Below are positions 10,805 to 59,127 of a stretch of 64,000 nucleotides of DNA, in pieces; positions within the stretch are counted from its first letter, which is position 1; the number at the start of each line of letters is the position of its first letter. The stretch spans positions 101,968-165,967 of the forward strand of contig JBBDRA010000002.1 in the NCBI GenBank assembly GCA_040905715.1, written 5' to 3'. The stretch is from Minisyncoccota bacterium. GTDB lineage: Bacteria; Patescibacteriota; Minisyncoccia; Phycocordibacterales; CSBR16-193. The notes beneath the pieces were generated by a model that saw only the letters and a program-made list of their open reading frames with translations, did not search any database and was not told the DNA's origin. The position numbers and the translations under genes are program-made.

Positions 10805-10891
10805 TCAGTTGCATAACTAACATGTAACGCATACGAACAAGACTGAATTGTTCATCGTATCGATATGATACACTAGAGAAAGCTCATTATT

Positions 10892-11554: not shown

Positions 11555-11577
11555 ATCGCGGTAATTGCACTATATAT

Positions 11578-13416: not shown

Positions 13417-13422
13417 CCTTCC

Positions 13423-14115: not shown

Positions 14116-14167
14116 TGGATAATATGCTCACCCCACTTCTAAATAGACGTGATAGAATAACACTATA

Positions 14168-14899: not shown

Positions 14900-15740
14900 C
14901 TCATCGAGAGACATGAATACTTTATTTATTATAATAAAAAAACAGTATCAGATACTCGGGGGAGTGGTTCTTGCTTTTATACTTCCGGTGGTTACGTACG
15001 CTCAAAATGATTACGTGCCGTTGGTGCCACTACCAGGGATCGATGGGTCCGGAGGGATCGGGCTGGCAAATTACTTTCAGCAGATGTTCATTCTACTGCT
15101 TAGTTTAACCACGGTCTTCGCGGTGTTGATGATTGTGATTGGCGGATTGCAATACATGACGGCCGGGGACAATGCGAGCAAAGTATCTGGAGCAAAAGAA
15201 ACCATTCAAAATGCTTTATACGGCCTTTTTCTTGCTATCGGTGCCTGGCTCATTCTTTACACCATTAATCCGACCATCCTCAGCTTAACAATCGGGGGTG
15301 ACGAGATTGAGCATCAATCATCCTATGGGTTTATGCGCAATCGAGTGACAACAGCCACGGTGTCGTCTGATTGGATGGGAAACAATTTTTTTGAATATAT
15401 CGCCGGCGCGAGCGACCCGGAGGATGCCGCAATTCAACAGTGCCTCCAAAAAGCCGCACAAATAAATAATGTAAGGGACGAGTATAATATATATAATATT
15501 CAGTCCGGTATGTGCACCAATCCAGAACAGGTCACTCGATATGATGGAGCTGTTGGGTACATCGCTCGTTTTGATTATGCGCGCGTATTCCCCGATACCC
15601 GTTTCGGGCCTGAGCGGTATTTCTCGGATACCATTGAAGAATGCCGAAATCGGCGGGATACAATAATACAGTCAGCAGCGAACCTGGGCGTACCGGCGAG
15701 CGCTCTAGATGCTTCTAATTGTCAGCCGTACACTCATTAA
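14880..15740 (+). CDS. VirB2/TrbC-like pilin with a C-terminal extension
   Basis: Signal peptide, then two closely spaced hydrophobic helices (FILLLSLTTVFAVLMIVIGGLQY and LYGLFLAIGAWLILYTI) typical of T4SS pilins, then roughly 150 aa of Cys-containing extension. Confidence 0.5.
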   Translation: MSDTGYSSSRDMNTLFIIIKKQYQILGGVVLAFILPVVTYAQNDYVPLVPLPGIDGSGGIGLANYFQQMFILLLSLTTVFAVLMIVIGGLQYMTAGDNASKVSGAKETIQNALYGLFLAIGAWLILYTINPTILSLTIGGDEIEHQSSYGFMRNRVTTATVSSDWMGNNFFEYIAGASDPEDAAIQQCLQKAAQINNVRDEYNIYNIQSGMCTNPEQVTRYDGAVGYIARFDYARVFPDTRFGPERYFSDTIEECRNRRDTIIQSAANLGVPASALDASNCQPYTH

Positions 15741-17080
15741 ATATGAAAAAGATCTTATACATCGCTGTGGTGCTTCTTGTTGTCGTTTGTGCGGCTGCTG
15801 TCGGTCTGTACGCATACCTACCAATCGGTGATGTGAATCCGGAGACCGGCGAGATAGTAAAGATCCAGGATTATTTGCCAATAGCAAATGATAGATCAGG
15901 TGATCCGGATTCTTCAGATGCGGGAGGTGATCAGACTCAGGATGAGGAAGGAGGTTCTCCGGCTGATACAACGTCTTCAGACGAAGAGACCTTACCGGCG
16001 CTGCGCGACCTTTCCGGAGAACCGGTTGCTGGTGCGATCGCGTTTGAGCAGACAGAGCAAGTAGGAACATCAACCCATGTATTTACTGAGATACGCTACA
16101 CGACGGTTGCACAAGGACACGTGCACAGTGCTCGGTCTGATCGGTCGGGTACCGACAGGGTTACCAATGAAACAAATCGAAAAACCGTTAATTCTGTCTG
16201 GACATCACCCGTTACCACAATTTTGCAGACAGTTGATACTAACAGGGATAGTATTACATCGCTGCTGGTTACGATCCACGATGAGCAGGCCACGTCATCC
16301 TCTCTGCGAGAGGTGAGTGGAAATTTTCTTAGCAACACTATTAAGAACATTGTCTCGGCACCAACCGGTGGTCAGATAGTCCTGATTCGATCGCAAGAGA
16401 GTGGTGGGGTTTCTGTTGAAGTAGGTCAGCCGGGAGAACAGATGACGGTGTTGTATACGACACCGCTGAGTGACTGGCAGATCGCATGGCCGGCTTCGGC
16501 ACAGGTTTTATTGACAACCAATCCGGGTGCTGGTGATGACGGATTCCTGTATTCGATCAATACGCAAAACGGCGCACGTACTCGATTGCTCGGTGGTATT
16601 GCCGGTCTGACAGTACGTATGAATTCGGGTGGTTCAAGGTTGCTTTACAATGAGAGTACGAGGAGCGGATTCCAGTTGTACAGCTACACTATTGAAACAG
16701 GTGAGAGCTCTGAACTTGTCACACACCAAACTCTGCCTGAGAAATGCACATGGAGTTCCGAGAGTTCAATAATTGCTTACTGCGGTGTTCCAAGAGAGGT
16801 TCCGTCTGCTCAGTATCCAGATGATTGGTATAAAGGTCGTGTGTCATTTGACGACCACCTAGCCCGGTTTAATGTCGAGACAGGAAAGGTTGAAATTCTT
16901 GAGGATCTCTCAGCAAAAATAGAAGGAGGTGGGGACGTTATCGAGCCCTTCCTCGGGCCCAACGAAGAGTATCTTTTCTTCACCAACAAAAAAGACGGTC
17001 ACTTGTGGAGCTACCGTCTCTCTGATTCAGAAGAGGCGGCTTCGACCAACTCTGGCTCTGAAGAGGGAGCTGATTTCTAG
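15719..17080 (+). CDS. Membrane-anchored beta-propeller-like protein (PD40/TolB-like repeats)
   Basis: N-terminal TM helix, Asp/Ser-rich linker and repeated beta-strand motifs. Confidence 0.45.
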   Translation: MSAVHSLNMKKILYIAVVLLVVVCAAAVGLYAYLPIGDVNPETGEIVKIQDYLPIANDRSGDPDSSDAGGDQTQDEEGGSPADTTSSDEETLPALRDLSGEPVAGAIAFEQTEQVGTSTHVFTEIRYTTVAQGHVHSARSDRSGTDRVTNETNRKTVNSVWTSPVTTILQTVDTNRDSITSLLVTIHDEQATSSSLREVSGNFLSNTIKNIVSAPTGGQIVLIRSQESGGVSVEVGQPGEQMTVLYTTPLSDWQIAWPASAQVLLTTNPGAGDDGFLYSINTQNGARTRLLGGIAGLTVRMNSGGSRLLYNESTRSGFQLYSYTIETGESSELVTHQTLPEKCTWSSESSIIAYCGVPREVPSAQYPDDWYKGRVSFDDHLARFNVETGKVEILEDLSAKIEGGGDVIEPFLGPNEEYLFFTNKKDGHLWSYRLSDSEEAASTNSGSEEGADF

Positions 17081-28524: not shown

Positions 28525-30216
28525 CTATTCTTCGCTGTCTATATCAACCACTCGACGCAGTTCCTCCAGCGAGGTTATGCCTTTAAGTGCCTTTATAACG
28601 CCATCTTCGGCAAGTCTCGGAATGCCTTGTGGTTTTGCTGCCTCCCAGATCTCACGGATACTTGGATTGTCCCGGAGCGCCATCTCGATCGCCTTATCCC
28701 CAAGGATCGCCTCGTAAATACCCAGACGCCCCTTGTACCCGAGGTCGTTGCATTTATCACATCCGCCAGCTACCCACATTTTTTCTGTCTGCAGGTCAAC
28801 AAGATACTTTTCGTTCTTTTCGCGCAAACTTGCCAGGAGTCGGTCAACGGTTTCTTTGTCTTTGCCCTCGATCACAGCTTCTTTTTTGCAGTCTTCACAA
28901 AGCTTTCGTACCAGGCGCTGGGCCATTGAGAGGGTGACCGCTGAGGTGATGACTTTTGCATCTACACCAAGGTCTATTAGACGCGGGAACGTACCGGCGG
29001 CATCATTTGTGTGCAGGGTAGAGAACACAAGGTGACCGGTCAGGGCCGCGTTGATCGCGGTGTTGGCGGTCTCCTCGTCACGGATCTCACCGACCATGAT
29101 GATGTCCGGGTCCTGGCGCATCGCGGAACGTAGTCCGGCGAGGAAGTCATACCCGGCCTCATGGTTTACCTGGGTTTGCACGACTCCTTCTAGGTGGTAC
29201 TCAACCGGGTTCTCGATCGTGAGGATCTTTACATCCAGCGAGTTTACCTCGCGGAGGAAAGAATAGAGCGTTGTTGTTTTTCCGGAACCGGTTGGACCGG
29301 TGTTCAGGAGCATGCCGTTTGGCTTCTGGATCTCTCGTTTGAATATCGTAAGCAGATCGGGCGGAATACCAAGGTCTTTAAGTTCCACCTGGATCGAGGA
29401 CGGGTCAAGAATACGCATTACGATCGAGTCGCCACCCGGGGAGGGAATGACCGAAGAGCGGATCTGGATCTTTGCATTGCCGGCATCGATCGAGAACCGG
29501 CCGTCTTGAGCTTCGCTGGTAACGTTAAGCTTCATGCCTGAGACCAGCTTAAATCTAGCCATGAGGCTTTTGTAGGTCGGGTAGTCGATATCGGCGATCT
29601 TTTGGAGCACACCGTCAAGACGGTATCTCAGACGCACAGCTTCTTCTTCCGGCTCGATATGGATATCAGACGCACCGACAGCCAGCGCACCGCCAAGAAC
29701 ATGCTCGGTCAGCTCTGAGGTCTTGGTCATGGAATCCTTTTCGAGTGTTGTGGAGACGAGCTCTCCTACGTCTTGGATCGTTTTTACTTTTTCGCGGATC
29801 GCATCAATATTTTCATTTGAAATATCAACCGTTCCGCGTCGGGTTTTAAAGGAGGCGGATAGATCATCATAGGTTCGCCAGCCTTTCTCAAGACCGATCG
29901 TGGTTGTGAGAAAGGGGTTTACGACGTACCCTTTTTCTTTGAGGTCACTTAGCACTTTTTGCGTCTCCTCGCTATTTGGCTGACGCATCGCAATGCTGAC
30001 CTTGTTGTTTACGATAGCGAACGGTACGAGTTTGGCTTTTTGAGATACTTCTTTGGGAACCAGCTGCATCGCGTCACCCTCGATGTTTTTCATGGTCAGA
30101 TCAACAAACTCCATTCCGGTCTTAGCGGCCAACTGCTGGACGAAATCGTCCTCTTCGTCCGTACGGAGTTTGCTCAGCGTTCCTTCTTGGTTTTCGTCGT
30201 CAAATTGGATGATCAT
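28525..30216 (-). CDS. pilB: Type IV pilus / type II secretion assembly ATPase (GspE/PilB family)
   Basis: N-terminal GspE-N domains, Walker A GPTGSGKTTTLYS, and a tetracysteine CDKC...C motif. Confidence 0.85.
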   Translation of the reverse strand: MIIQFDDENQEGTLSKLRTDEEDDFVQQLAAKTGMEFVDLTMKNIEGDAMQLVPKEVSQKAKLVPFAIVNNKVSIAMRQPNSEETQKVLSDLKEKGYVVNPFLTTTIGLEKGWRTYDDLSASFKTRRGTVDISNENIDAIREKVKTIQDVGELVSTTLEKDSMTKTSELTEHVLGGALAVGASDIHIEPEEEAVRLRYRLDGVLQKIADIDYPTYKSLMARFKLVSGMKLNVTSEAQDGRFSIDAGNAKIQIRSSVIPSPGGDSIVMRILDPSSIQVELKDLGIPPDLLTIFKREIQKPNGMLLNTGPTGSGKTTTLYSFLREVNSLDVKILTIENPVEYHLEGVVQTQVNHEAGYDFLAGLRSAMRQDPDIIMVGEIRDEETANTAINAALTGHLVFSTLHTNDAAGTFPRLIDLGVDAKVITSAVTLSMAQRLVRKLCEDCKKEAVIEGKDKETVDRLLASLREKNEKYLVDLQTEKMWVAGGCDKCNDLGYKGRLGIYEAILGDKAIEMALRDNPSIREIWEAAKPQGIPRLAEDGVIKALKGITSLEELRRVVDIDSEE

Positions 30217-31307: not shown

Positions 31308-31766
31308 ATGACGACCGTTTCGGAAGGTGAATTACAGGGCTTTGTTGAGCGTTTTTTGCAGGAGATATCAGAAAACACAGCGACTGACCGTACAAAATCG
31401 GTCGTTGTGGCTTTGTCCGGGGATCTGGGGGCCGGAAAAACCACCTTCACCCGTACGCTTGCCCGTGTTCTGGGTGTAACCGGACCGGTCACCAGTCCGA
31501 CCTTTGTGATCGAGCAGGTGTATGACCTACCGGCTGACAAGAACTTTGGTCACCTGGTTCACATTGATGCGTACCGACTTGAGAGCTCTGAAGACCTCCG
31601 AAGACTTGGCTGGGATGACATTGTTGCAGATCCGGCTAATTGTATTGTGGTTGAGTGGGCACAGAAGGTTGCAGATATACTACCTGAGGATGCGGTGTGG
31701 TTGATGTTTGAGGTGGTGGGAGAGAAGGAGAGGGAAATAACTACAGGACCTCAAATCAAACACTGA
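31308..31766 (+). CDS. tsaE: tRNA threonylcarbamoyladenosine biosynthesis protein TsaE
   Basis: P-loop ALSGDLGAGKTTFTR and about 150 aa. Confidence 0.75.
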   Translation: MTTVSEGELQGFVERFLQEISENTATDRTKSVVVALSGDLGAGKTTFTRTLARVLGVTGPVTSPTFVIEQVYDLPADKNFGHLVHIDAYRLESSEDLRRLGWDDIVADPANCIVVEWAQKVADILPEDAVWLMFEVVGEKEREITTGPQIKH

Positions 31767-31800
31767 ATACCGGATACCGGATACTGAATACAGACTACCG
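31763..31800. promoter_or_regulatory. ATACCGG / ATACTGAATAC repeat motif upstream of polA
   Basis: ctgaataccggataccggatactgaatacagactaccg. A related motif lies upstream of ruvX at 42816-42846. Confidence 0.25.
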
Positions 31801-34976: not shown

Positions 34977-35105
34977 TGTCCGCCCGGTAGCCTGCCTGCC
35001 GGAAGGCAGGGAATCGCCTCTCCCTTCGGTCGAAATGCGCTAAAAACATAGTCGCAAGCCTGTCTGCCAACAGGCAGGCTCCTTGTTTTTAGGCACCTTC
35101 GGTTC
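34977..35105. repeat. Degenerate partial copy of the tRNA-Lys 3-prime region interrupted by a 20-nt hairpin insert, plus an inverted T-loop-like ggttcgattcc
   Basis: tgtccgcccggtag[cctgcctgccggaaggcagg]gaatcgcc compared with the real tgtccgcccggtaggaatcgaacc at 35164-35190. Confidence 0.55.
35057..35090 (+). terminator. Intrinsic terminator after holA
   Basis: Stem agcctgtctg / caggcaggct with loop ccaa, followed by ccttgttttt. Confidence 0.5.
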
Positions 35106-35157: not shown

Positions 35158-35166
35158 GTTTTGTTG

Positions 35167-35239
35167 TCCGCCCGGTAGGAATCGAACCTACGACCGTCTC
35201 CTTAAAAGGGAGCTGCTCTACCGACTGAGCTACGGGCGG
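35167..35239 (-). tRNA. tRNA-Lys (anticodon TTT)
   Basis: Cloverleaf read by hand: acceptor CCGCCCG/CGGGCGG, D-arm GCTC-AGTCGGTA-GAGC, anticodon loop CTTTTAA, T-arm GTAGG-TTCGATT-CCTAC. Confidence 0.8.
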
Positions 35240-35284
35240 AAGTGAGGACGATCAGAAATATATCATATATATTTATGTTTCGTC

Positions 35285-35400
35285 CGAATGCACCGCCCGA
35301 AAGATTTTCTTACGGGCGGGAATGAGCGGTATCGCGCGAGAGCTAGCTCTCGCATGATCCGCGATTGACCGTTCGCAAGCTTTGCTTACGGGCGGGTAAT
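35285..35400. repeat. tRNA-Lys upstream region with two partial copies of the tRNA 5-prime end and palindromes
   Basis: cccgcccgtaag copies (minus-strand sense) at 35309-35320 and 35386-35397. Perfect 18-bp palindrome gcgagagctagctctcgc at 35336-35353. Confidence 0.5.
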
Positions 35401-35469
35401 TTGCGGCAAGAGTATTATTGCTCTTGCGTTGATTTCAATTTATAGCATAGAATAGAGAGCGTTTCAATT

Positions 35470-41170: not shown

Positions 41171-41222
41171 TGTACTTAATTTTCTGATGCCCCGCTGGCT
41201 GGCGGAGAACTAGAAAAAGAAG

Positions 41223-41250
41223 TGCTCCCGGCAGGAATCGGCCCCGCGAG
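41223..41250. repeat. Partial duplicate of the tRNA-Arg(GCG) 3-prime end (att-like)
   Basis: gtgctcccggcaggaatcg repeats the sequence at 41499-41517. Confidence 0.6.
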
Positions 41251-41257
41251 TTCTAAG

Positions 41258-41400
41258 TATTTTGCTTCGCTCAAACAAATAAGGCTTCTTGTGTTTTCTT
41301 CGAAAACATCCGCGAAGCGAATGTGTGCTTTTTTGGATACGGAACGTTACACTTGCAAAAAACACACATTCGCCTGGCCGGCGCCTCACATCGCTACGCG
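41258..41400. repeat. Repeat element copy A (about 135 bp; second copy at 51364-51500)
   Basis: Shares a 53-nt exact core cttcttgtgttttcttcgaaaacatccgcgaagcgaatgtgtgcttttttgga and a conserved long hairpin cgaatgtgtg...cacacattcg. Confidence 0.6.
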
Positions 41401-41571: not shown

Positions 41572-41720
41572 AAATGAGGGGTATCGCGCAAAAGCATACT
41601 CTCTGGCAAGTGAGGGATACGAGAAAACTCGTTTTCATCGTATCACGAACGAAGTCAGAGAAAGCTATGCGACTTTGTTTTCTTTTGAACAGCTTTGCTT
41701 ACGGGAGCAAGGCTTGCGTC
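41565..41720. repeat. tRNA-Arg(GCG) leader region, inverted homolog of 45996-46130, including a partial tRNA 5-prime copy
   Basis: Over 90% identity in reverse complement to the leader of tRNA-Arg(TCT). The ttgctcccgtaag copy is at 41698-41710. Confidence 0.6.
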
Positions 41721-42777: not shown

Positions 42778-42843
42778 CACCGAGATTATTTATGAGTTTG
42801 CTCACTTGCTACTGCATACCGAATACGAGATACTGAATACTGT

Positions 42844-43227: not shown

Positions 43228-43286
43228 GTTTTTCTTGTGCGCATAAGCAGGTTTTGAAACGCACGCACCTGCGTTATAATACCTCT

Positions 43287-44351
43287 ATGACAAGCAACGA
43301 GTTCCTGCACTTTTTTCCAGCACCAACATTTCTTCAGATGCCGACTGCCGGGCTTGATATTGCTGATGGAGAAATACGTTTCATTGAGCTTCGCGAAGAC
43401 CGCGGAGTTCTTGGGCTTCAAAATTACGGGATGCAAAAGATAGCTAATGACGTGATCGAAGAAGGCTCTATTGAGAAAAAAGAGGAACTTGTAGCAGCTC
43501 TTACAAAAATCCGCGAAGAGAACGGTCTTAAGTTTGTGCGAGTCTCTCTCCCCGAAGAAAAATCATACGTATTTCATACAACAGTTCCGTACGCTGCAAA
43601 CCCTGATGAAATGCGAGACGCTATTAGCTTCACGATCGAAGAAAACGTTCCTCTGTCAGCGGAAAATGTAGTGTTCGATTACAACGTGATAGGTAGAAAG
43701 TCCGTAAAGGTATCGGAAGATGTGGATGTTGCTGTCTCGGCACTCCCGATCAATGTTGTAGAAATGTATATTGATGTAATTCGATCAAGCGGGTTACGCC
43801 CGATGTCACTTATGGTTGAGTCGCAAGCTATCGCGCGATCGGTGGTCCCAAAGGAAAATCCAAATTCATTCTTGGTTATAAATATCGATACGGAAACATC
43901 GGTGGTATATATCGTAAATAATAATACAGTACACTTCACGTCAGCGTTTCCTACAAAAAATGCAGGTTCAAGTGTTTTAACTTCTAGCACTTCGATCACC
44001 CAAGAAGGGGAGCTTGTTGATAATAAGGAAGATTCAATAAGTGAAGAAGATACTTTTTTCTCGAATGCGTCTGAGATACTTGCTGAAGTAAAGCGAGTGT
44101 ATGATTATTGGCATTCGCGTGGCATCGGGTCACAAAAGGACAACCAAGTGAAAAAATTTCTTATATGTGGAGATCACGCCCTCGATAAACAGTTTCAGAA
44201 AAAGCTTGCTGAAACATTTTCGGTTGATGTTGAGACCGCGAATGTCTGGATAAACGCGATGACATTTGACGAGTCTGTACCAGAGATACCTGTTGATGAA
44301 GCACTGCGGTATGCTGCCGCGATCGGTTTGGCACTTCCTCAAAATATATGA
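43287..44351 (+). CDS. pilM: Type IV pilus assembly protein PilM (actin-like ATPase)
   Basis: PilM-like pattern LDIADGEIRFIEL and actin fold length. Start moved to the ATG 6 nt after a TATAAT box, since the ORF-track start is a TTG. Confidence 0.65.
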   Translation: MTSNEFLHFFPAPTFLQMPTAGLDIADGEIRFIELREDRGVLGLQNYGMQKIANDVIEEGSIEKKEELVAALTKIREENGLKFVRVSLPEEKSYVFHTTVPYAANPDEMRDAISFTIEENVPLSAENVVFDYNVIGRKSVKVSEDVDVAVSALPINVVEMYIDVIRSSGLRPMSLMVESQAIARSVVPKENPNSFLVINIDTETSVVYIVNNNTVHFTSAFPTKNAGSSVLTSSTSITQEGELVDNKEDSISEEDTFFSNASEILAEVKRVYDYWHSRGIGSQKDNQVKKFLICGDHALDKQFQKKLAETFSVDVETANVWINAMTFDESVPEIPVDEALRYAAAIGLALPQNI

Positions 44352-44899
44352 TCAACCTGCTACCAGAGAGTGAGAAAAAACGAGTTCGCCGCGAATATAA
44401 TGTGCGCCGCATGGTTGTCGTGGTTATTTTTGCGTGTGTGACCGGTGTTATTGTCGGTATTGCGTTGCTGCCATCCTATATGCATGTGCAGGCGCGTAAA
44501 CAAGCACTTAGCCAAGAACTTGATCATCTGGAAAGATCAACAGACAGTAAAAGATCGCAAGAGTATGCAGAACGTCTTGAACGCGCGAATCAAATGATAT
44601 CTATTCTGACTCCACACAAAAATTACATTCCGGCCTATGTCCTCATAGAGAATTTAGTTGATAACCTGACGGAAGAGGTAAGATTACGCGGTATGAGTTA
44701 CGAGCGCAAAATCACAGAAGATGGTGAGCGCAGTATCCTTTTGTCAGTGACCGGTGTTGCTGCGGATCGGGACGCTCTCACCGCGTTAAAACAAGCACTC
44801 GAAGAAGTTTCGTATTTCGATGAAGTTGATCTACCGATCTCGAATTTTGCGGAGCGAGAGAATATTGAGTTCTCCATGACCTTAACCGGAACCCTCTAA
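44348..44899 (+). CDS. pilN: Type IV pilus assembly protein PilN
   Basis: N-terminal MINLLPE motif followed by a single TM helix. Overlaps the pilM stop. Confidence 0.7.
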   Translation: MINLLPESEKKRVRREYNVRRMVVVVIFACVTGVIVGIALLPSYMHVQARKQALSQELDHLERSTDSKRSQEYAERLERANQMISILTPHKNYIPAYVLIENLVDNLTEEVRLRGMSYERKITEDGERSILLSVTGVAADRDALTALKQALEEVSYFDEVDLPISNFAERENIEFSMTLTGTL

Positions 44900-44904
44900 C
44901 ACAT

Positions 44905-45450
44905 ATGTCCTCGAGTATAAAAACATTATCAATATCATGTCTTGTCGTTCTCGTTGTGAGCGGTATTGTGATCGGTTTTTTCTACGAGATACGATCAGTG
45001 AACAGTGAAGCGAATGCTATTGCAGAACAGGTGAGGGTTGAGCGTGAGCGTCAGCAACGTTCAGAGTCAGTACAGGAAACACTTGAGAACAACGTTCAAG
45101 AGATCAACAGTCTTGGCTCATATATTGTGGGTGCAGATGAAACACCTGATTTCTTGAGCATGGTGGAAGAAGTTGGCACACAAAGCGGGGCCACTATCAG
45201 TACAGAATCAGTAGAGACATTGGATGAGGACGAATCAGATCAAGGGGAGCTTTTACAGATGAACGTAGTGATCTCCGGAAGTTGGCAGGAGGTATACCGT
45301 TCGGTCGCTCTAATAGAAACATTGCCATTCAAGATCACGGTGACTGCTTTTAATTTTTCTCAGAAAAGCACCGGAGAAGAAGAGGGCCCTGCTATTCAGT
45401 GGGAGGCAAAGGTAAAATTAGATGTCGTTAAATTAACTTCAACTCTATAA
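44905..45450 (+). CDS. PilO-like membrane-anchored protein
   Basis: Single TM helix and a coiled-coil region, in operon position after pilN. Confidence 0.45.
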   Translation: MSSSIKTLSISCLVVLVVSGIVIGFFYEIRSVNSEANAIAEQVRVERERQQRSESVQETLENNVQEINSLGSYIVGADETPDFLSMVEEVGTQSGATISTESVETLDEDESDQGELLQMNVVISGSWQEVYRSVALIETLPFKITVTAFNFSQKSTGEEEGPAIQWEAKVKLDVVKLTSTL

Positions 45451-45452
45451 TT

Positions 45453-45791
45453 ATGTTCGCTCGTATTAAAAAACAACTACGCGCAGTGATCCCGCAAGGC
45501 AAGGGGCGGGGTACCGGTGCGCACCCAATGTTTCAACCGGAGCATGACTGGCAGATCATGAGCGCTGCGTTTATTGTAGTAAATGTAGTGGTCGCCGTTA
45601 TTGCGTGGTATATGTACATTCAGGTAGAGTCAGGAACCTTTTTTGCGAGCACTGTTGTGCAGGAAGAGAATAGCAGTGCTCAACTTCAAAAAAATGAACT
45701 GACAAATATCATTGAACATTACGAGCAAAAAAAGAGACGTTCCGGTGAATTTCAACGCGAAGCCGAGGTCATAATTGACCCTTCAGAGTAA
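45453..45791 (+). CDS. Small single-TM protein (fourth gene of the pilMNO operon)
   Basis: Operon context. Confidence 0.35.
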   Translation: MFARIKKQLRAVIPQGKGRGTGAHPMFQPEHDWQIMSAAFIVVNVVVAVIAWYMYIQVESGTFFASTVVQEENSSAQLQKNELTNIIEHYEQKKRRSGEFQREAEVIIDPSE

Positions 45792-45829
45792 TGGTAGTAT
45801 GGTTTTGGGGCTTGCTTATTGAGTGAGCA

Positions 45830-46194
45830 GAATTTGCTCCCGTAAGTAAACTTGCTCTGACAACGCTCGGACGGTACGTAAACGCGTTTCCGACCGCTCC
45901 TCGCTTGTCAGAGTAAGCGAAGCTTTCGAAAGCTACATTCGCGGATCATGCAAAAGCAAGCACCACCAGGGCACTTCTTGTTTTCTAATTCACAGCGAAG
46001 CTGTTCATAAGAAAACAAAGTCGCATAGCTTTCTCTGACTTCGTTCGTGATACGATGAAAACGAGTTTTCTCGTATCACTCACTTGTCAGAGAGTATGCT
46101 TTTGCGTGATGCCGTTCACTTGCTCCCGTAAGCGAAGCTTTCGGGATCTGCGTTCGAAGAAAATAGAAGTAAACTTCAATTTTGCTTCTCACTT
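45830..46194. repeat. tRNA-Arg(TCT) leader with two partial tRNA 5-prime copies and nested palindromes
   Basis: ttgctcccgtaag at 45834-45846 and 46119-46131. Palindromes agctttcgaaagct (45921-45934) and aaacgcgttt. 45996-46130 is the inverted homolog of 41565-41700. Confidence 0.6.
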
Positions 46195-46266
46195 GCTCCC
46201 GTAGTTCAACGGATAGAACAAGGGGCTTCTATCCCCTCAATGTGGGTTCGATTCCTACCGGGAGCA
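46195..46266 (+). tRNA. tRNA-Arg (anticodon TCT)
   Basis: Acceptor GCTCCCG/CGGGAGC, anticodon stem AGGGG/CCCCT with loop CTTCTAT, T-arm GTGGG-TTCGATT-CCTAC. The first 25 nt are identical to tRNA-Arg(GCG). Confidence 0.85.
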
Positions 46267-46271
46267 CAATG

Positions 46272-46318
46272 AAACACACGGATGTTTTTGAAAAAAACAT
46301 CCGTGTGTTTCGTATTTT
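46272..46318 (+). terminator. Intrinsic terminator (18-bp stem aaacacacggatgttttt/aaaaacatccgtgtgttt) after the tRNA
   Basis: Seen in sequence. Confidence 0.55.
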
Positions 46319-46422
46319 GGAGTAGGAATCGAACCGGGAAGGGGTCGGGGAACGGTAGTTCCCCGTGAAGGAAAGGTGGAAAAACCGTGGGTTTTCCAGA
46401 TGTTCTTTCCTGCCGGGAGCAC
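46319..46422 (+). repeat. tRNA-associated structured element, copy 1 (GGGAAGGGGTCGGG hairpin family)
   Basis: Left flank ggagtaggaatcgaacc, hairpin cggggaac-ggta-gttccccg, second hairpin ggaaaaacc-gtg-ggttttcc, right flank cctgccgggagcac (tRNA 3-prime duplicate). Confidence 0.6.
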
Positions 46423-46582
46423 TACCAGAGTACTTCTTTATTTCTAACTCGCTTCCGCTCATAAGGGCTAAAAGTCGCACAACCAGAGCACCTCTTAAAA
46501 TATCCCACCGTAACAAACTGTCGGCAAAACCAGTCTTCACTAGCAGGCGTTTCATGTTCCTTCAAATATAAAGGATGCCAAG

Positions 46583-47161
46583 ATGGTGAAGAAGAAGGTA
46601 AAAGCGAAAGTCGGCGAGAACAGATCTCCTCAGCTAACGGGTGAACAAATACAGTATATCGAAGAGAGAATAGCCAGTATTGGATCGGCAAAGCGTTCGC
46701 TCGATGAGTTGCAGGCGCAAATGGATCAGCAGATCGAAGAGGTTCGCGAGTCGTTCCGATCACGAACACAGCAGAGTGCTACTGTGGTTCAGGAAAAGCT
46801 AGATGAGCTCTATCAGTTCTGTGAGGAGAACGCCGAGGCGGTTACTCAGGGCGGACTTCAGCAAAGTGTGAAGGTAAGCAACGGGCAACTTGGTTGGAGA
46901 TTAGGGAATACCACCGTGGAAGTAATAGAAGCTGAAGATTCGGTGATAGCTCGTATCAAGCAGCGCAGTCTAAGTCGAAAGTTGTTGATACAGACTCCGC
47001 GACTGAACAAGATAGCTATCAAAGCTTTTCTGGAAGCCGGTTGCCGCATTAAGGGTGTTGTGCTCAAAACACCTCAGCGGTTCTTCGTAAAGCCCTCTGA
47101 GACCGTGGAAGGGGTCTCGAAAGATGTTCAGACACTTCAAAAGCTCTCCGGCAAAAAGTAA
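46583..47161 (+). CDS. Phage Mu Gam-like DNA-end-binding protein
   Basis: Blockwise similarity to Mu Gam as recalled from memory, not checked against a database: FCEENAEAVTQGG vs WCEANRDELTNGG, NGQLGWRLGNTTVEV vs TGDVSWRVRPPSVSI, RLNKIAI vs EINKEAI. Confidence 0.65.
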   Translation: MVKKKVKAKVGENRSPQLTGEQIQYIEERIASIGSAKRSLDELQAQMDQQIEEVRESFRSRTQQSATVVQEKLDELYQFCEENAEAVTQGGLQQSVKVSNGQLGWRLGNTTVEVIEAEDSVIARIKQRSLSRKLLIQTPRLNKIAIKAFLEAGCRIKGVVLKTPQRFFVKPSETVEGVSKDVQTLQKLSGKK

Positions 47162-48805: not shown

Positions 48806-50494
48806 ATGGAGAAAAAACAAGACTTTTATTGGCTCAATGAAAACAGTATTGCATTCTTGGAGCGGGGGTATTTGCAGGAAGGTCAGAGTGCACAAGAGCG
48901 CATCCGAGAGATAGCCGACACCGCTGAACGGTATCTCGGCAAAGAAGGGTTTGCCGACAAGTTCTATGACTATATGGCAAAAGGGTACATCTCTCTCGCG
49001 TCTCCTGTGTGGTCGAATTTCGGGATCGACAAAGGGCTTCCGATCAGTTGTTTTGGTTCGTATGTGGGCGACAGTATGGGGAGCATTATGTTTACCCAGT
49101 CGGAGGTAGGTATGATGAGTAAATTTGGCGGTGGAACGTCCGGATACTTCGGCGCACTGAGATCTCGCGGATCGAACATAAGTCAGAACGGACACTCTTC
49201 CGGCTCAGTTCATTTCATGCAGCTTTTTGACCTGATGGTAGATGTGGTGAGTCAGGGTTCTGTGAGGCGGGGTCATTTTTCTCCATATCTTCCGATCGAA
49301 CATCCGGATATAGAAGAGTTTCTGCAGATAGCAACAGAGGGAAATCCTATACAGAATTTGAATCACGCGGTAACAGTAAGTGATGAGTGGCTTCAGGCGA
49401 TGGTCGACGGCGATGAAGAGAAGCGGGCTCTATGGGCAAAGGTAATACAGCGACGAAGCGAGATCGGATACCCATATATCATGTTCTCTGATAACGCCAA
49501 CAATAATACGGTCGATGTGTACAAGGATAAAGGTCATAAGATCTACGCAAGTAATCTGTGCAGTGAAATAATGCTTCCCTCAAACGAAAAGTGGTCGTTC
49601 GTGTGCTGTTTGTCATCATTGAACGTCCTTCACTATGATGACTGGAAAGACACTGATCTGGTAGAGACAATGACGTACTTCCTTGACGCGGTCATCACCG
49701 ACTTCTGCACGAAATTAGAGGCGATGCGGGATTCTGATAAGAAGGAAAAACAATTGGCCTTTCAGTTCATGGAGAGAGCATATACATTTGCGAAAGAGAA
49801 TCGAGCTATTGGGATCGGCGTACTTGGATGGCATTCACTGCTCCAGTCACGAATGCTTTCCTTTGAAAGCGACGAGGCGAATCAACTTAATGTTGAGATC
49901 TTTAAGTCTATTCGGGAAAAGGCATATACAGCTTCAGAAGCTCTCGCAGAGGACTTGGGAGAGCCTGAAGTGTTAAAGGGATATGGAAGGAGAAACACCA
50001 CGCTTATGGCTGTGGCCCCAACAACGTCTTCTGCGTTTATTCTCGGACAAGTATCGCAGAGTATCGAACCGGTTTGGTCAAACTGTTATGTCAAAGATGT
50101 ACAAAAGTTAAAAGTCACCATTAAAAATCCATTTCTCGAAGATCTTTTAGAAGAAAAGGGAAAGAATACTCGTGAAGTTTGGGAAGACATTCGCAATAAC
50201 GACGGATCGGTTCAGCATTTGGAGTTTCTTACTGAAGAAGAAAGAAAGGTGTTCCGGACTTTTGCGGAATTGGATCAATCTGTAGTAATCGAGCAAGCGG
50301 CGGTACGGCAGCAGTACATAGACCAAGGGCAGTCCTTGAACATTGCTGTTTCTCCCGATGTTTCGGCAAAAGATATTAATCAACTGTACATTCAGGCGTG
50401 GCGTCAGGGAATTAAGGCGCTTTACTATCAGCATAGTGTAAACGCGGCGCAGGCGTTGAGCCGCAAAAAGATCTGTTTGAATTGCGAGGCCTGA
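48806..50494 (+). CDS. nrdA: Class I ribonucleotide reductase large subunit without an ATP-cone
   Basis: Active-site motif NLCSEI and the C-terminal Cys pair region. 562 aa. Confidence 0.85.
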   Translation: MEKKQDFYWLNENSIAFLERGYLQEGQSAQERIREIADTAERYLGKEGFADKFYDYMAKGYISLASPVWSNFGIDKGLPISCFGSYVGDSMGSIMFTQSEVGMMSKFGGGTSGYFGALRSRGSNISQNGHSSGSVHFMQLFDLMVDVVSQGSVRRGHFSPYLPIEHPDIEEFLQIATEGNPIQNLNHAVTVSDEWLQAMVDGDEEKRALWAKVIQRRSEIGYPYIMFSDNANNNTVDVYKDKGHKIYASNLCSEIMLPSNEKWSFVCCLSSLNVLHYDDWKDTDLVETMTYFLDAVITDFCTKLEAMRDSDKKEKQLAFQFMERAYTFAKENRAIGIGVLGWHSLLQSRMLSFESDEANQLNVEIFKSIREKAYTASEALAEDLGEPEVLKGYGRRNTTLMAVAPTTSSAFILGQVSQSIEPVWSNCYVKDVQKLKVTIKNPFLEDLLEEKGKNTREVWEDIRNNDGSVQHLEFLTEEERKVFRTFAELDQSVVIEQAAVRQQYIDQGQSLNIAVSPDVSAKDINQLYIQAWRQGIKALYYQHSVNAAQALSRKKICLNCEA

Positions 50495-50562
50495 TATCTT
50501 TGATGGCAGGAGACGGGTGGAGTCACGTAAAAATAGAAACACAAAATGGTACACTGGTGATA

Positions 50563-51078
50563 ATGAGAAAAGAAGATCAGCAAGGTTTTTCCCTTATTGA
50601 ATTACTCGTTGTCATCGCTATCATCGGCATACTTTCTGCGGTTGTGTTGGCGTCGTTGAGTGTGGCTCGAGATTCTGCCCACTTTGCACGAGCGAAAGCA
50701 GAGATGAGAAGTATCCGTGAGGCAATGGAGTTTTACTATAATGAGCACGGTGAGTACCCGGCAGATGCTAATCGGGGCCAGTCACCGGGTCTTGATGAGT
50801 ACCTTACTTCAGATGGATGGCCGGAAGGACCGTGGCCGGGGAGTGTGTATGACTGGGATGTGTGGGACATAGACGGAGATGGTGATGTTGATACGTATCA
50901 GATCAGTGTTCGATTTTGTCCTAGCGACACTTCTCCGCTAGAGGACTGTCGATTTCCTGACGAAGAGTGGGCGGATAACTTTGATCAACAGAGTAGCGTA
51001 TACTATTGTGTTGACGGTTCGTGCCAAGCTCATGTAGGTGAAGACGCTGATCACCCTGGATATTGCGTGAATTGCTAA
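50563..51078 (+). CDS. Type IV pilin-like protein (prepilin)
   Basis: Class III signal peptide MRKEDQQG|FSLIELLVVIAIIGIL with G-1, F+1 and E+5. C-terminal Cys pairs. Confidence 0.75.
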   Translation: MRKEDQQGFSLIELLVVIAIIGILSAVVLASLSVARDSAHFARAKAEMRSIREAMEFYYNEHGEYPADANRGQSPGLDEYLTSDGWPEGPWPGSVYDWDVWDIDGDGDVDTYQISVRFCPSDTSPLEDCRFPDEEWADNFDQQSSVYYCVDGSCQAHVGEDADHPGYCVNC

Positions 51079-51363: not shown

Positions 51364-51500
51364 TGCCTTGCTTCGCAAACAAATCTTCTTGTGTTTTCTT
51401 CGAAAACATCCGCGAAGCGAATGTGTGCTTTTTTGGAGATGGAGCGCTTCGCTAGCAAGAAACACACATTCGGCTGCGCCTTTCTCGTCCCTACGCAGGC
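51364..51500. repeat. Repeat element copy B (homolog of 41258-41400)
   Basis: Same 53-nt core as copy A (positions 51385-51437) and the same cgaatgtgtg...cacacattcg hairpin with a different loop. Confidence 0.6.
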
Positions 51501-51519: not shown

Positions 51520-51588
51520 ACGCCCACAAAGCAAAAATCTGCACGAATAATTCGCACAGATTTTTGCTTTGTGGGCGTTGAGGGACTC
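51520..51588. repeat. 24-bp perfect-stem hairpin overlapping a partial duplicate of the tRNA-Val 3-prime end
   Basis: caacgcccacaaagcaaaaatctg...cagatttttgctttgtgggcgttg. tgtgggcgttgagggactc at 51570-51588 repeats the sequence at 51720-51738. Confidence 0.55.
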
Positions 51589-51793: not shown

Positions 51794-51891
51794 CTACTTC
51801 GCTCGGGTTGTCACCCGAGCTTCGAAGGACAAGTTGTATTTAATTTGTACCGCGTCTCGTCCTGCGAAGCTCGATTGCCAGTGAGAGCGTA

Positions 51892-51912
51892 GCGGGAAGC
51901 TAAACGCCCTAT
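51892..51912. repeat. Partial copy of the tRNA-Val 5-prime end upstream of the gene
   Basis: Minus-strand sense atagggcgtttagcttcccgc compared with the real gggcgtttagctcag. Confidence 0.45.
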
Positions 51913-55259: not shown

Positions 55260-55390
55260 TACGGAGTAAACAGGAGCTGGGACTTGGGGAAGGGGTCGGG
55301 AAACGGGAGTTTCCCGTGGAGGAAGGCAGCGACCGAAGGGAGTGTTGGAAAACCGCGGGTTTCCAAGTTAGTCTTGCCCTGGGCACAAAA
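55260..55390 (+). repeat. tRNA-associated structured element, copy 2, ending in a 15-nt duplicate of the tRNA-Leu 3-prime end
   Basis: Motif ggggaaggggtcgggaaacgggagtttcccgtggagg (55287-55322), second hairpin ggaaaacc-gcg-ggtttcc (55347-55364). gccctgggcacaaaa at 55376-55390 repeats 55207-55221. Confidence 0.65.
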
Positions 55391-58898: not shown

Positions 58899-58945
58899 GG
58901 AATCGAACGGGAAGGGGTCGGGAAAACTAGAGTTTTCCCGTGAAG
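58899..58945 (+). repeat. tRNA-associated structured element, copy 3 (partial, no adjacent tRNA)
   Basis: ggaatcgaac followed by gggaaggggtcgggaaaac-taga-gttttcccgtgaag. Confidence 0.55.
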
Positions 58946-59127
58946 TCTGCCTGCGGGCGCTGTCAGGGAAAGCTCTGCTTATGAATGGAATGAATTAGGA
59001 AACAAGCAATGCTCTTTGGGTATTTCCCAGAAGTGAGATAGCGACGGAATCCCGCTTTCGCGGGCTCAGCTTTTTCGGAGACTTATTCTCAGCCAAAATC
59101 ATATATAACCTGTGATACTATTCACTC

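Follow-up and report, generated by a model that had tools for sequence, protein, structure and literature searches.

Introduction

Integrase-driven integration of islands, prophages and ICEs into tRNA genes generates partial copies of the gene at attL and attR (Reiter 1989; Williams 2002; reviewed in PMC9897764). tRNA genes are also targeted by retrotransposons of compact eukaryotic genomes, such as Dictyostelium TRE and yeast Ty1/Ty3 (PMC5006619, PMC6101501). Fragments of tRNA architecture are known as minihelix or microhelix substrates and tRNA-like structures, which include RNase P model substrates, the tRNA-like domain of tmRNA, and YrlA (PMC4201824).

Our literature search returned no description of tRNA-end modules like those reported here; it returned only the classical att-site explanation and the eukaryotic tRNA-targeting retrotransposons. 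In known miniature element families, the ends are fixed (terminal inverted repeats or a GTAG foot) and target duplications are short or missing. To our knowledge, none of them homes to tRNA positions +1 to +9 or to the T-loop, or has a target-derived inverted arm. Casposons (Cas1-solo transposons) integrate at tRNA 3′ ends with 14–15 bp target duplications.

Here we describe inserts at tRNA gene ends in a 64,000-nucleotide stretch of DNA from the Patescibacteria (the window). Patescibacteria genomes are ~1 Mb and have very little spare DNA. Against this compactness it is notable that six of the seven window tRNA genes carry at least one insert, 5′ or 3′. Like MITEs, REP/REPIN, Correia, RUP/BOX and Rickettsia palindromic elements, the inserts are short, multi-copy, non-coding, hairpin-forming and intergenic, can nest, and would often be co-transcribed with adjacent genes. 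Their ends (AGCRAAGCT... and ...YTCAYTT) were not inverted copies of each other, and an inverted-repeat scan detected internal hairpins only. As with casposons, tRNA 3′ ends are targeted and duplications are long. Casposons, however, are kilobase-sized and have terminal inverted repeats, Cas1 plus a polymerase and a fixed duplication length, none of which was seen here (no ORF, no terminal inverted repeat, variable duplication length), and 5′-end insertions are unknown for them. TRE and Ty1/Ty3 likewise find safe havens at the tRNA genes of gene-dense genomes and make variable target duplications, but they are eukaryotic, protein-coding and recruited by pol III factors, and they insert tens of bp from the gene rather than inside its ends.

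Results

tRNA 5′ ends are repeated upstream of four window tRNA genes

The original prediction held that four tRNAs are preceded by copies of their own first 9–12 nt. We found exact upstream 5′-end copies at four of the seven window tRNAs, at distances of 73–359 nt, and exact matching, shuffle tests and an independent assembly (L121) all bore this claim out. The repeated unit was tRNA positions 1–9 for Arg-TCT (twice), Lys (twice) and Arg-GCG, and positions 1–12 for Val. Ser, Leu and His had no 5′ copy. The predicted 9–12-nt lengths were correct, and the exact Arg-TCT copies start at 45836 and 46122.

CCCGTAAG occurred five times in the window (1.13 expected; five reached in 0/100 shuffles), each time upstream of Arg-TCT, Lys or Arg-GCG. 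When upstream regions were shuffled 2000 times, any single 9-mer copy was matched 10–19 times and the Val 12-mer 0 times. Chance is excluded because all copies begin at tRNA +1 and two tRNAs carry two. Metagenome assemblies can turn short repeats of repeat-rich intergenic DNA into chimeras, and L121 itself ends within a repeated module. However, L121 was identical to the window over their entire overlap (46048–46590, the end of the aligned stretch), and therefore the repeated tRNA starts are not an assembly artefact. The same architecture was also present in dozens of unrelated assemblies. With the shuffle tests, these data leave chance matches or an assembly artefact a negligible probability.

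The tRNA-Arg(TCT) leader contains nested modules

The outermost copy of tRNA-Arg(TCT) positions 1–9 (GCTCCCGTA; 45836–45844, + strand) has upstream surroundings that look native, and we take it to mark where the 5′ end lay ancestrally. It is followed by a composite module A (45845–46121, + strand) that comprises a AGCGAAGCT cap, a degenerate inverted copy (TTCGAAAGC), a long hairpin (CGGATCATGCAAAAGC...GCTTTTGCGTGATGCCG) and the end GTTCACTT. We observed two nested inserts in module A: a 71-nt hairpin (45847–45917) with GTAAG repeats on both sides, and an insert of ~165 nt within the hairpin loop. The inner copy (GCTCCCGTA; 46122–46130, + strand) is preceded by TTCACTT, as before the real tRNA. 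Module B (64 nt; 46131–46194, + strand) consists of the AGCGAAGCT cap, the inverted copy TTCGGGATC, TGCGTTCG, a hairpin (GAAGAAAA...TTTTGCTTC) and CTCACTT adjoining tRNA +1. The tRNA (46195–46267, + strand) is intact and does not encode CCA.

Modules of this main family share one order: an AGCRAAGCT mini-hairpin cap, an imperfect inverted copy of the duplicated segment, TGCRTTCG, a second hairpin, and YTCAYTT adjoining the next copy or tRNA +1. The AG that had been noted after each copy already belongs to the inserted module, as its first two bases. What had been seen as an AAGCTT/TTCGAA palindrome is really the cap plus the 3′ arm of a hairpin, and the copy itself supplies the 5′ arm. The inverted copy is specific to its own tRNA, and therefore the old 5′ end folds as an acceptor-stem-like hairpin. 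Of 45 discriminating positions, 29 in the inverted arms of the 5′ modules paired with the cognate tRNA, compared to 28% for non-cognate pairs (p = 4e-7). The inner Arg-TCT copy and module B form such a hairpin at −11.5 kcal/mol (z −2.8); leader hairpins across the window ranged from −11.5 to −17.4 kcal/mol (z −2.8 to −4.6), and the entire Lys module B reached z −6.3.

By eye, the Arg-TCT leader at ~45955–45997 looks similar to the tRNA's own 3′ end and 3′ flank (46418–46450).

A 133-nt stretch that includes the inner copy (45998–46130, + strand) was 94% identical to the Arg(GCG) upstream region running into that tRNA (41695–41563). This stretch would fit decayed tandem tRNA duplicates, or a single local duplication common to both Arg genes, as would the likeness of the leader segment to its own gene's 3′ end and flank. 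However, Lys and Val each have tRNA-specific copies, D-arm and anticodon-arm remnants are absent after every copy, and the junction is always 9/10 (or 12/13), then AGCRAAGCT, across different tRNAs and organisms. The Lys, Val, L045 and metagenome-contig cases refute tandem decay as the sole explanation, and we consider this account very unlikely. Decayed tandem copies may nevertheless contribute to the Arg-TCT locus. Confinement of the pattern to the two Arg genes had been named as the outcome that would refute the original prediction. We found it at Lys and Val too, and at Pro, Asp, Lys, Arg, Leu, Ser and Thr genes in other genomes.

Modules at the remaining loci differ in number and family

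The tRNA-Lys leader (35240–35395, − strand) contains an outer copy (35395–35387), module A (35386–35320), an inner copy (35319–35311) and module B (35310–35240). Both copies are CCGCCCGTA, and the two leader hairpins measured −17.4 and −12.7 kcal/mol. The tRNA-Arg(GCG) leader (41572–41708, − strand) has a single copy of positions 1–9 (GCTCCCGTA; 41708–41700) and one module, with a CCTCATT end at tRNA +1. The tRNA-Val leader (51794–51909, − strand) carries a copy of positions 1–12 (GGGCGTTTAGCT; 51909–51898) and a module of another family (CGAGCTTCG...TCGAAGCTC, a hairpin, and GAGCGAAGTAG), which also occurs at a tRNA-Arg in L045. The proposal that one common form precedes all four tRNAs held for Arg-TCT, Lys and Arg-GCG, but not for Val. 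B-type modules were invariably the tRNA-adjacent ones. Duplication length was 9 bp in 11/11 clear cases of the main (GTAAG) family, 12–13 bp in the Val-type family, and 10–34 bp in the 3′ core family described below.

Filled and empty sites point to insertion

Compared with Arg-GCG, Arg-TCT has a clean insertion of 73 nt (64-nt module + 9-nt repeat) directly after ...TTGCTCCCGTA. In the nearest relative with holA/tRNA-Lys/SpoU synteny, 58 nt separate tRNA-Lys from SpoU, and neither a module nor a copy is present; in the window, the distance from SpoU to the outermost Lys copy is 73 nt. A sigma-70-like promoter match (TTGAAA-16-AATACT; 35411–35438, − strand) is located just upstream of the outermost Lys copy, and a promoter-like site is likewise present just upstream of the outermost Arg-GCG copy. 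A strict sigma-70 scan from the outermost copy to the tRNA detected no internal promoter at Arg-TCT, Lys or Arg-GCG. AT-rich loops with TATGAT-like hexamers in the modules are possible weak promoters. The empty site in the relative, the clean Arg insertion and the restriction of promoter-like sites to the region upstream of the outermost copy support a reading as recombination scars, which was among those originally offered.

Within the window, the main 5′ family occurs at Arg-TCT, Arg-GCG and Lys, with repeats that differ by tRNA. On metagenome contigs we observed it at Pro (four times), Lys and Asp, with the gene's own acceptor strand before each, and a related module with a longer hairpin cap at Arg-TCG.

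The best explanation, and in our judgement a probable one, is nested insertion of miniature, non-autonomous, tRNA-end-targeting modules. The upstream copies would be displaced halves of target duplications. Small (~30–280 nt), non-coding, hairpin-rich modules would have been inserted, sometimes successively, precisely at the start of the tRNA gene, at its first 9 bp (Arg, Lys) or 12 bp (Val). The tRNA would remain intact downstream of each insertion, and the old promoter and old 5′ end would be shifted upstream. With the promoter so displaced, the primary transcript would gain a long structured leader.

tRNA 3′ ends carry a counterpart with a conserved core

Five of the seven window tRNAs had a 10–19-nt copy of their own 3′ end downstream. 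Shuffled sequence matched the copies of four tRNAs in 0/2000 trials and that of the fifth in 4/2000. In the direction of transcription, the 3′ layout is the same as the 5′ layout (segment X, loop, inverted X, body, X), and the 3′ X runs from the T-loop to a few bases beyond the gene end. Neither these downstream copies nor the breadth of the phenomenon formed part of the original prediction.

Immediately 3′ of tRNA-Arg(TCT) lies an intrinsic-terminator-like hairpin (46270–46312, + strand). An inverted copy (GTAGGAATCGAACC; 46322–46335, + strand) of the T-loop and T-stem 3′ strand (46245–46258) adjoins the conserved 3′ core (46336–46397, + strand; 79.8 bits), which consists of GGGAAGGGGTC, hairpin P1 (GGGGAAC/GTTCCCC), GTGAAGGAAAG and hairpin P2 (loop CCGTGGG). 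The downstream direct copy (TTCCTGCCGGGAGCAC; 46407–46422, + strand; 15/16 match) spans the T-stem 3′ strand, the acceptor 3′ strand and the first trailer base. The tRNA-Leu(GAG) element (55279–55390, + strand; 64.4 bits) has an inverted T-loop copy (GGGACTTG; 55279–55286), a core (55287–55380), a direct copy (GCCCTGGGCACAAAA; 55376–55390) and a terminator. A degenerate core (GGAATCGAAC + core; 58899–58981, + strand; 31.2 bits) lies 3′ of tRNA-His, downstream of which we found no direct copy of the tRNA-His 3′ end. Further downstream copies belong to tRNA-Lys (CTACCGGGCGGACA; 34977–34990, − strand), tRNA-Arg(GCG) (19 nt, CGATTCCTGCCGGGAGCAC; 41222–41240, − strand) and tRNA-Val (19 nt; 51570–51588, − strand), the last followed by a terminator. 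The Lys insert opens with a terminator and GGAATCGAACC (inverted T-loop).

Three window 3′ inserts have the two-hairpin core in common. We found at least ~60 copies of the core in genomes of Patescibacteria. Almost every one sits immediately 3′ of a tRNA, with an inverted copy of the adjacent tRNA's T-arm/acceptor end on one side and a direct copy on the other. A genome search with a 17-mer core motif returned at least 120 loci. Among the matches listed, about half had the hairpin and lay 17–170 nt 3′ of a same-strand tRNA of any isotype; these mostly had an inverted T-arm copy adjoining the core and a 10–34-nt direct copy at the far end. A covariance model alone added four copies, each directly 3′ of a tRNA. 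The core was ~95% conserved across deep lineages, with compensatory changes. The insert family is ~100 nt long, and its core, nearly invariant from Saccharibacteria to Paceibacteria, also occurs in MAGs that bear the labels Bdellovibrionales and Gammaproteobacteria. In two further copies, the 3′ element (X/terminator/inverted X/core/X) lies at the 3′ end of a protein gene that we read as a putative rplL from its C-terminal sequence. This placement suggests an insertion mechanism that is independent of tRNA structure.

At Rfam gathering thresholds only tRNAs passed, and at E values up to 10 the best non-tRNA matches in 45780–46480 scored 15–26 bits against cut-offs of 40–100. The conserved core has no Rfam family, and a literature search found no paper on it. 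Several identities for the core were rejected. A G-quadruplex (GGG-AA-GGGG-TC-GGG-AAAC-GGG) is broken in CGGTAG variants, which have no fourth tract. A small ORF behind the core GGAGG was dismissed in that the next stem covaries at the nucleotide level. Likeness to tmRNA, SRP or RNase P fragments was superficial, with several copies per 64 kb. Viral contigs gave 15 matches to the 17-mer, none with the hairpin or a tRNA; these were chance matches, and a phage link was rejected.

Where the tRNA and downstream copies differ, the inverted copy matched the tRNA at 182 positions and the downstream copy at 53, most such positions lying outside the truly homologous stretch. Inverted copies centre on the T-loop/T-stem and usually end before the acceptor end, and direct copies run into the genomic trailer, not CCA; the ~18 nt complementary to the mature 3′ end including CCA that mark a tRNA-primed retroelement were absent.

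The order X, spacer, inverted X, core, X resembles the "site, content, inverse site, structured spacer, site" of integron attC and CTX phage attP(+), and a single-strand hairpin of inverted and direct copies would likewise mimic a double-stranded target. The ...TTCGAAC adjoining the core and the GTTCGA at the target start each agreed with the attC consensus (RYYYAAC/GTTRRRY) at 5/7 positions. However, the spacer here has its own conserved hairpins, two independent ones in the central region between the attC-like ends, and targets vary in sequence by site.

The 3′ inserts also invite the classical explanation, in which integrase-bearing islands or prophages integrated in tRNA genes and were later deleted, leaving attL/attR-like copies. 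As in such systems, an insert lies in a tRNA-gene end, part of the gene is directly repeated and one intact tRNA is kept, and flanking partial tRNA copies are the hallmark of integrase integration (PMC9897764). The 3′ repeats run from the T-loop past the 3′ end. The T-loop is reportedly among the integrase sublocations in tRNA genes. Yet the modules span ~30–280 nt and have no room for an ORF, whereas islands span 9–120 kb. One core or module family served more than 15 tRNA isotypes, each with its own target-specific repeat, and not a single tRNA species with a single att core; this is impossible for a site-specific integrase with a fixed attP. The 9-bp repeats at 5′ ends, with an inverted target copy within the insert, are foreign to the integrase pattern, and right-hand copies do not have the T-stem 5′ arm that an attR should contain. 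The 40 window ORFs scanned yielded no integrase, transposase or RT domain, and the core was not found in viral contigs. We regard att-site scars as an extremely unlikely origin.

Some module features would fit functional pre-tRNA structures

The 9-nt copies were perfect in 5/5 window cases and the inner copy was 8/9 in the diverged relative L148, although the surrounding module sequence had strongly diverged between the two. This suggests constraint or gene conversion rather than neutral scars. Islands conserved between the window and L148 Lys leaders were the copy plus GTAAG, CTTTCG and CTCACYT. YTCAYTT precedes pseudo and real 5′ ends alike and places U at −1, which RNase P favours. YTCAYTT was not enriched window-wide (60 vs 51 expected); it was rejected as a general motif and matters only as the module end. 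AGCGAAGC was rejected as a DNA-uptake sequence (10 copies per 64 kb vs 3.4 expected, half within modules).

An alternative, which takes in the two other readings originally offered (processing-site mimics and regulatory decoys), is that the modules are functional pre-tRNA architecture, in which pseudo-5′ ends (leader microhelices) and pseudo-3′ ends (trailer minihelix-like stems) are selected as processing mimics or decoys. Partners might include RNase P, RNase Z, the CCA-adding enzyme, an aminoacyl-tRNA synthetase or a tRNA-targeting toxin, or the role might be in folding or stability. The modules would then persist by usefulness whatever their origin, which is compatible with an origin by insertion. 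The stable leader hairpins, the tRNA-specific base pairs at the stem foot, the YTCAYTT context, the conserved Lys islands and the ability of the copies to pair with the real 3′ acceptor strand all argue for it. As in minihelix and microhelix systems, leader hairpins reproduce the cognate acceptor stem, and 3′ elements are predicted to be able to close an acceptor + T-stem helix around the core; the elements differ from those systems in having no intact T-loop or CCA. Covariation in the core also favours function, as do G-U pairs on the tRNA strand, although that signal was weak (P1, two G-U and one U-G; P2, three G-U vs four A-C, the A-C pairs arising mostly from bulge misalignment). Conservation of the core with compensatory changes is no less consistent with a functional RNA than with a selfish one. 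On the other side, 5′ modules are absent from the nearest relative's tRNA-Lys and from three of seven window tRNAs, and outer hairpins are degenerate, with nested inserts. Terminators lie between many 3′ elements and the tRNA, so most would be poorly transcribed, and the element also follows the putative rplL. Taken as a whole, selected architecture is possible but rather unlikely, and a B-type module next to a tRNA could be a functional leader.

Discussion

Modules at tRNA ends turn out to be widespread in Patescibacteria (CPR), and they look like footprints of insertion. The loci display duplications, module families, nesting, presence or absence between relatives, and tRNA-specific arms. 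We infer mobility from this distribution alone, because searches of the window turned up no transposase, integrase or RT partner, and neither terminal inverted repeats nor an excised form was found. Duplications fixed at 9 bp in the main 5′ family and of 10–34 bp in the 3′ family seem unlike those made by classical transposases. Under the insertion model, the modules would be, or have been, non-autonomous mobile or copy-paste elements that prefer highly transcribed genes. The inverted copy would be made from the target during insertion, most simply by fold-back (hairpin-primed) synthesis nucleated by a GCGAAGC-type mini-hairpin or by the terminator hairpin.

Tentatively, and with less expectation than for insertion itself, the modules may be an unrecognised class of protein-less miniature homing elements of Patescibacteria with a target-complementary guide arm. 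A trans-acting enzyme (reverse transcriptase, HUH nuclease or recombinase) would then act on the element through its core, or else the core could be a new widespread tRNA-linked functional RNA. The arm, complementary to the target sense strand, would be carried by the element or re-templated at each insertion, and would steer insertion to gene ends at highly transcribed loci, chiefly tRNAs and occasionally the putative rplL.

In practical terms, the modules break assemblies (L121 ends inside one) and give tRNA-fragment false positives, and they provide dense markers for strain-level comparison of CPR genomes. If the modules are mobile, they would find safe havens at tRNA genes in a new way, and their target-derived complementary arm might amount to a new principle of targeting. 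If they are functional, they would constitute a lineage-specific layer of pre-tRNA structure, with acceptor-stem mimics in leaders and minihelix-like trailers.

Copies of tRNA 5′ ends in the window

ARAGORN and Rfam concordantly placed seven tRNA genes in the window, and encoded CCA is absent from all seven. The original prediction was that partial copies of the tRNA 5′ end lie upstream of four of them. We found the quoted repeat strings where it had placed them, and the exact unit is positions 1-9 of tRNA-Arg(TCT), tRNA-Lys and tRNA-Arg(GCG) or positions 1-12 of tRNA-Val. Two exact copies precede tRNA-Arg(TCT) (45836-45844 and 46122-46130, + strand) and tRNA-Lys (35395-35387 and 35319-35311, − strand), and one precedes tRNA-Arg(GCG) (41708-41700, − strand) and tRNA-Val (51909-51898, − strand). 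The sequence CCCGTAAG occurs five times in the window (1.13 expected), each time upstream of Arg-TCT, Lys or Arg-GCG. A 9-mer match arose in 10-19 of 2000 shuffles per 400-nt upstream region, and the Val 12-mer in 0/2000. Since the copies all start exactly at +1 and are doubled at two tRNAs, chance is excluded. From 46048 through the aligned end at 46590, the window was identical to an independent Logan assembly of this organism. No 5′ copy was found upstream of tRNA-Ser, -Leu or -His in the window.

Structure of the 5′ modules

At Arg-TCT, Arg-GCG and Lys, AGCRAAGCT (AGAAAATCT in one case) comes after the copy, and the next nine bases are an imperfect inverted copy of the duplicated tRNA segment. 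Upon folding, copy, cap and inverted copy formed a single hairpin, in which an acceptor-like stem is followed by a U-U or U-G pair, a 4-bp AAGC/GCUU stem and a triloop (−11.5, −17.4 and −12.7 kcal/mol; z-scores −2.8 to −4.6). The AAGCTT/TTCGAA palindrome originally described after the copy corresponds to this hairpin. The inverted arm is tRNA-specific: at five tRNA-distinguishing positions, Watson-Crick pairing was 29/45 with the cognate tRNA versus 28% with non-cognate tRNAs (p = 4e-7).

Downstream of the acceptor-like hairpin lie TGCRTTCG, a second hairpin and YTCAYTT, which adjoins the next copy or the tRNA +1. Lys and Arg-TCT each carry two such modules (small, hairpin-rich, non-coding inserts) in identical order, an outer A type (stem CGGATCATGC...GCGYGATRCCG) and an inner B type (TGCRTTCG, hairpin, TCACTT). 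Module A of Arg-TCT contains nested inserts, such as a 71-nt hairpin between GTAAG flanks. The Val module belongs to a separate family (CGAGCTTCG...TCGAAGCTC, hairpin, GAGCGAAGTAG), which we also observed in a Paceibacterota MAG, where it sits at a tRNA-Arg gene and the copy of this tRNA is 13 nt long.

Directly after tRNA-Ser (42798-42815), CTCACTT followed by GCTACTG resembles a module end and a degenerate tRNA-Arg start, and may be a module remnant. Repeats of the ACTGAATACCGGATACCGGATACTGAATAC type (2327-2356, 31762-31791 and 42811-42840) lie immediately upstream of gene starts, for example those of polA (31809) and an ORF at 42844, and may be a regulatory or operator-like motif.

Filled and empty sites

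The Arg-TCT and Arg-GCG loci align at 94-97% identity across ~130 nt. Compared to Arg-GCG, the Arg-TCT locus carries a clean 73-nt insertion straight after ...TTGCTCCCGTA, consisting of module B (64 nt) and the second 9-mer copy. The two loci thus form a paralogous filled/empty pair. Of the relatives found, the closest (SpoU 69% identical) shares the holA / tRNA-Lys / SpoU order with the window; there, 58 nt separate tRNA-Lys from SpoU and neither side of the tRNA carries a module or copy, which makes this an orthologous empty site. The window distances to SpoU are 73 nt from the outermost Lys copy and 230 nt from tRNA-Lys. In L148, a diverged relative, the tRNA-Lys leader has two modules as in the window, and in L259, another relative, tRNA-Lys has no 5′ module and a different 3′ insert with a 32-nt repeat. 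This presence and absence among relatives indicates that modules were gained or lost at one orthologous gene.

Sigma-70-like matches lie just upstream of the outermost Lys copy (TTGAAA-16-AATACT, 35438-35411) and the outermost Arg-GCG copy (41759-41731). These were the sole matches on the tRNA strand, and none was found between any copy and its tRNA, a placement that supports insertion of the modules. The tRNA-Lys(TTT) of the window (35166-35239) and those of L148, L257 and L259 have C1 paired to G72 (CCGCCCG.../CCCCCT...), an uncommon feature in tRNA-Lys.

3′ inserts in the window

The original picture of copies upstream only overlooked a 3′ counterpart downstream. Five window tRNAs have copies of their 3′ ends 130-258 nt downstream, spanning the T-loop or T-stem to 1-4 nt beyond the gene (10 exact (15/16), 13-15, 14, 19 and 19 nt). 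By shuffling, four were matched in 0/2000 and the fifth in 4/2000. The inserts of Arg-TCT (46322-46422), Leu (55279-55390) and His (58899-58981) share a core of GGGAAGGGGTC, hairpin P1 (GGGAAA / loop CGGGAG / TTTCCC), GTGGAGGAAGG and hairpin P2 (variable stem, loop CCGWGGG). Immediately 5′ of this core, the T-loop and T-stem of the tRNA concerned are repeated in inverted orientation. The inverted copy of Arg-TCT (GTAGGAATCGAACC) is 14/14 complementary to 46245-46258, and that of Leu (GGGACTTG) tracks the unusual Leu T-loop.

We also observed a 101-nt repeat (88% identical) at 41276-41376, between tRNA-Arg(GCG) and its 3′ copy, and at 51376-51476, past the Val 3′ copy and terminator. It contains a hairpin (GAATGTGTG...CACACATTC) and resembles a further small hairpin module. 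The Lys 3′ insert (34990-35085, − strand) contains repeats of a short hairpin module, CCTGCC-TNCCGG-CAGGCAGG, which is also nested in P1 or P2 of the 3′ core elsewhere (L023, L025, L029 and L073, loci from other genomes). By eye, GCAC-(N)ACCAGRGYACYTCTT...TTCTAAYTC follows the 3′ copy of each Arg tRNA and recurs once in the Arg-TCT leader (45955-45997 versus 46418-46450, 46475-46505 and 41222-41200), which may reflect an old duplication of a whole tRNA-Arg locus.

The window, part of a Candidatus Paceibacterota MAG, is a core chromosomal region (dnaA, dnaN, polA, ruvAB, yidC, ksgA) with type IV secretion genes (VirB4/TraG-like, T4SS pilin) and type IV pilus genes (PilB, PilM, PilO, prepilin); these secretion, pilus and core genes were noted at 10367-17080, 28525-30216, 43254-45450 and 50482-51078. 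A Mu Gam-like gene (46583-47161) adjoins tRNA-Arg(TCT).

Related elements in other genomes

Scanning one genome per species with the 17-mer GGGAAGGGGTCGGGRAA gave at least 120 loci, and about half of those listed have the P1 hairpin (at least ~60 copies). Among the matches listed, P1-bearing loci follow a same-strand tRNA, of nearly any isotype, at a distance of 17-170 nt, and the hosts are Saccharibacteria, Paceibacteria, Moranbacteria, Kaiserbacteria, Nomurabacteria and other Patescibacteria, with the core also in a few MAGs labelled Bdellovibrionales, Bacteriovorax and Gammaproteobacteria. Most P1-bearing loci have a 7-21-nt inverted T-arm copy against the core and a 10-34-nt direct copy at the far end, the latter often extending into the trailer and even a second terminator. 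The remaining 17-mer matches, in high-GC genomes and with no hairpin, were attributed to chance. So were all 15 matches in the viral contigs searched with the 17-mer, which held no copy of the 3′ element.

A covariance model from 23 copies gave 61 matches in 66 loci; four lay outside motif ascertainment, all directly 3′ of tRNAs. In P1, one A-U pair has changed to G-C by compensation, and three pairs are wobbles on the tRNA strand. In P2, the loop stays constant and the stem occurs in at least eight different versions, each fully compensated (167/187 stem positions Watson-Crick). The P1/P2 element (~60-100 nt, bracketed by inverted and direct copies of the tRNA 3′ end) has no Rfam family.

Two 3′ elements (L019:1100-1300, L030:6300-6500) follow the stop codon of a protein gene, in the order gene end, terminator, inverted copy of the gene end, core and 26-35-nt direct copy. 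Going solely by its C-terminal ...GGKV(T/E)LK*, we read this gene as a putative rplL; copies after it show that the 3′ element is not strictly tRNA-specific. The region downstream of a tRNA-Arg(TCG) (L142:4700-5030, − strand) contains the tRNA 3′ end in inverted orientation (21 nt, no mismatch), after which the unit of body, GGTTCGAATCC and inverted copy recurs in tandem at least three times; the body end ...GTACTGAACCTGTAAG resembles the Val 3′ insert of the window (...GTACAGAATCTGTAAG, ~51612-51592).

For the 5′ modules, we scanned metagenomes with GTAAGCRAAGCTTKCG. Six of the 120 matches listed lie 30-127 nt upstream of a same-strand tRNA (Pro four times, Lys, Asp); the cognate tRNA's first seven bases precede each, and most finish with CTCACTT at +1. 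A neighbouring tRNA-Arg(TCG) is built alike, except that its cap is longer. Among the genome loci fetched, an upstream 5′-end copy of at least 10 nt occurred at 13 of 91 tRNAs versus 2 in the control direction.

Common design and possible origin

The order along transcription at both tRNA ends is X, loop, inverted X, body, X, where X is the duplicated target segment; in 5′ modules the real tRNA start is the last X, and in 3′ inserts the real tRNA end is the first. Junctions on the body side fall precisely at position 9/10 or 12/13 for 5′ modules and at the T-loop for 3′ inserts, and the outer end of the 3′ repeat varies. The modules have no ORF and no terminal inverted repeats, and integrase, transposase and RT domains were absent from 40 scanned window ORFs. 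Overall, our data show insertion with target duplication by multiple module families, with nesting, turnover between relatives and a target-derived inverted arm. We infer that the modules are non-autonomous mobile or copy-paste elements.

A functional layer, with modules acting as processing mimics, decoys or stabilisers, would be compatible with an insertion origin. Despite diverged surroundings in L148, the 9-nt copies there are nearly perfect, and those of the window fully so; the module adjoining the tRNA is always B type, and the 3′ core is near-invariant across deep lineages. These features speak against modules that are purely selfish, and a functional layer would be a serious rival.

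For insertion, the simplest origin of the X, loop, inverted X order would be fold-back (hairpin-primed) synthesis, with a GCGAAGC-type mini-hairpin as the nucleus for 5′ modules and the terminator for 3′ inserts. Given the sense-strand polarity and targets that are tRNA genes and the gene read as rplL, the substrate would be highly transcribed DNA or its transcripts. The inverted arm could possibly act as a guide. Folded single-strand recombination, as in CTX phage and integron attC, would also give the observed order, but would not easily explain the target variety.

Our full-text literature search found no description of these modules, and in membership tests they fell outside MITEs by their lack of terminal inverted repeats, and outside casposons, primer-binding sites and Rfam. 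Among known phenomena, the nearest is the partial duplication of a tRNA where integrase-borne islands end (PMC9897764). Three features that define this class are missing from the modules: an integrase, a single att core for each element family, and kilobase size. We rate tRNA-end insertion with partial gene duplication as a kind already known, within which the modules differ, and the 3′ core element has a real chance of being a new class.
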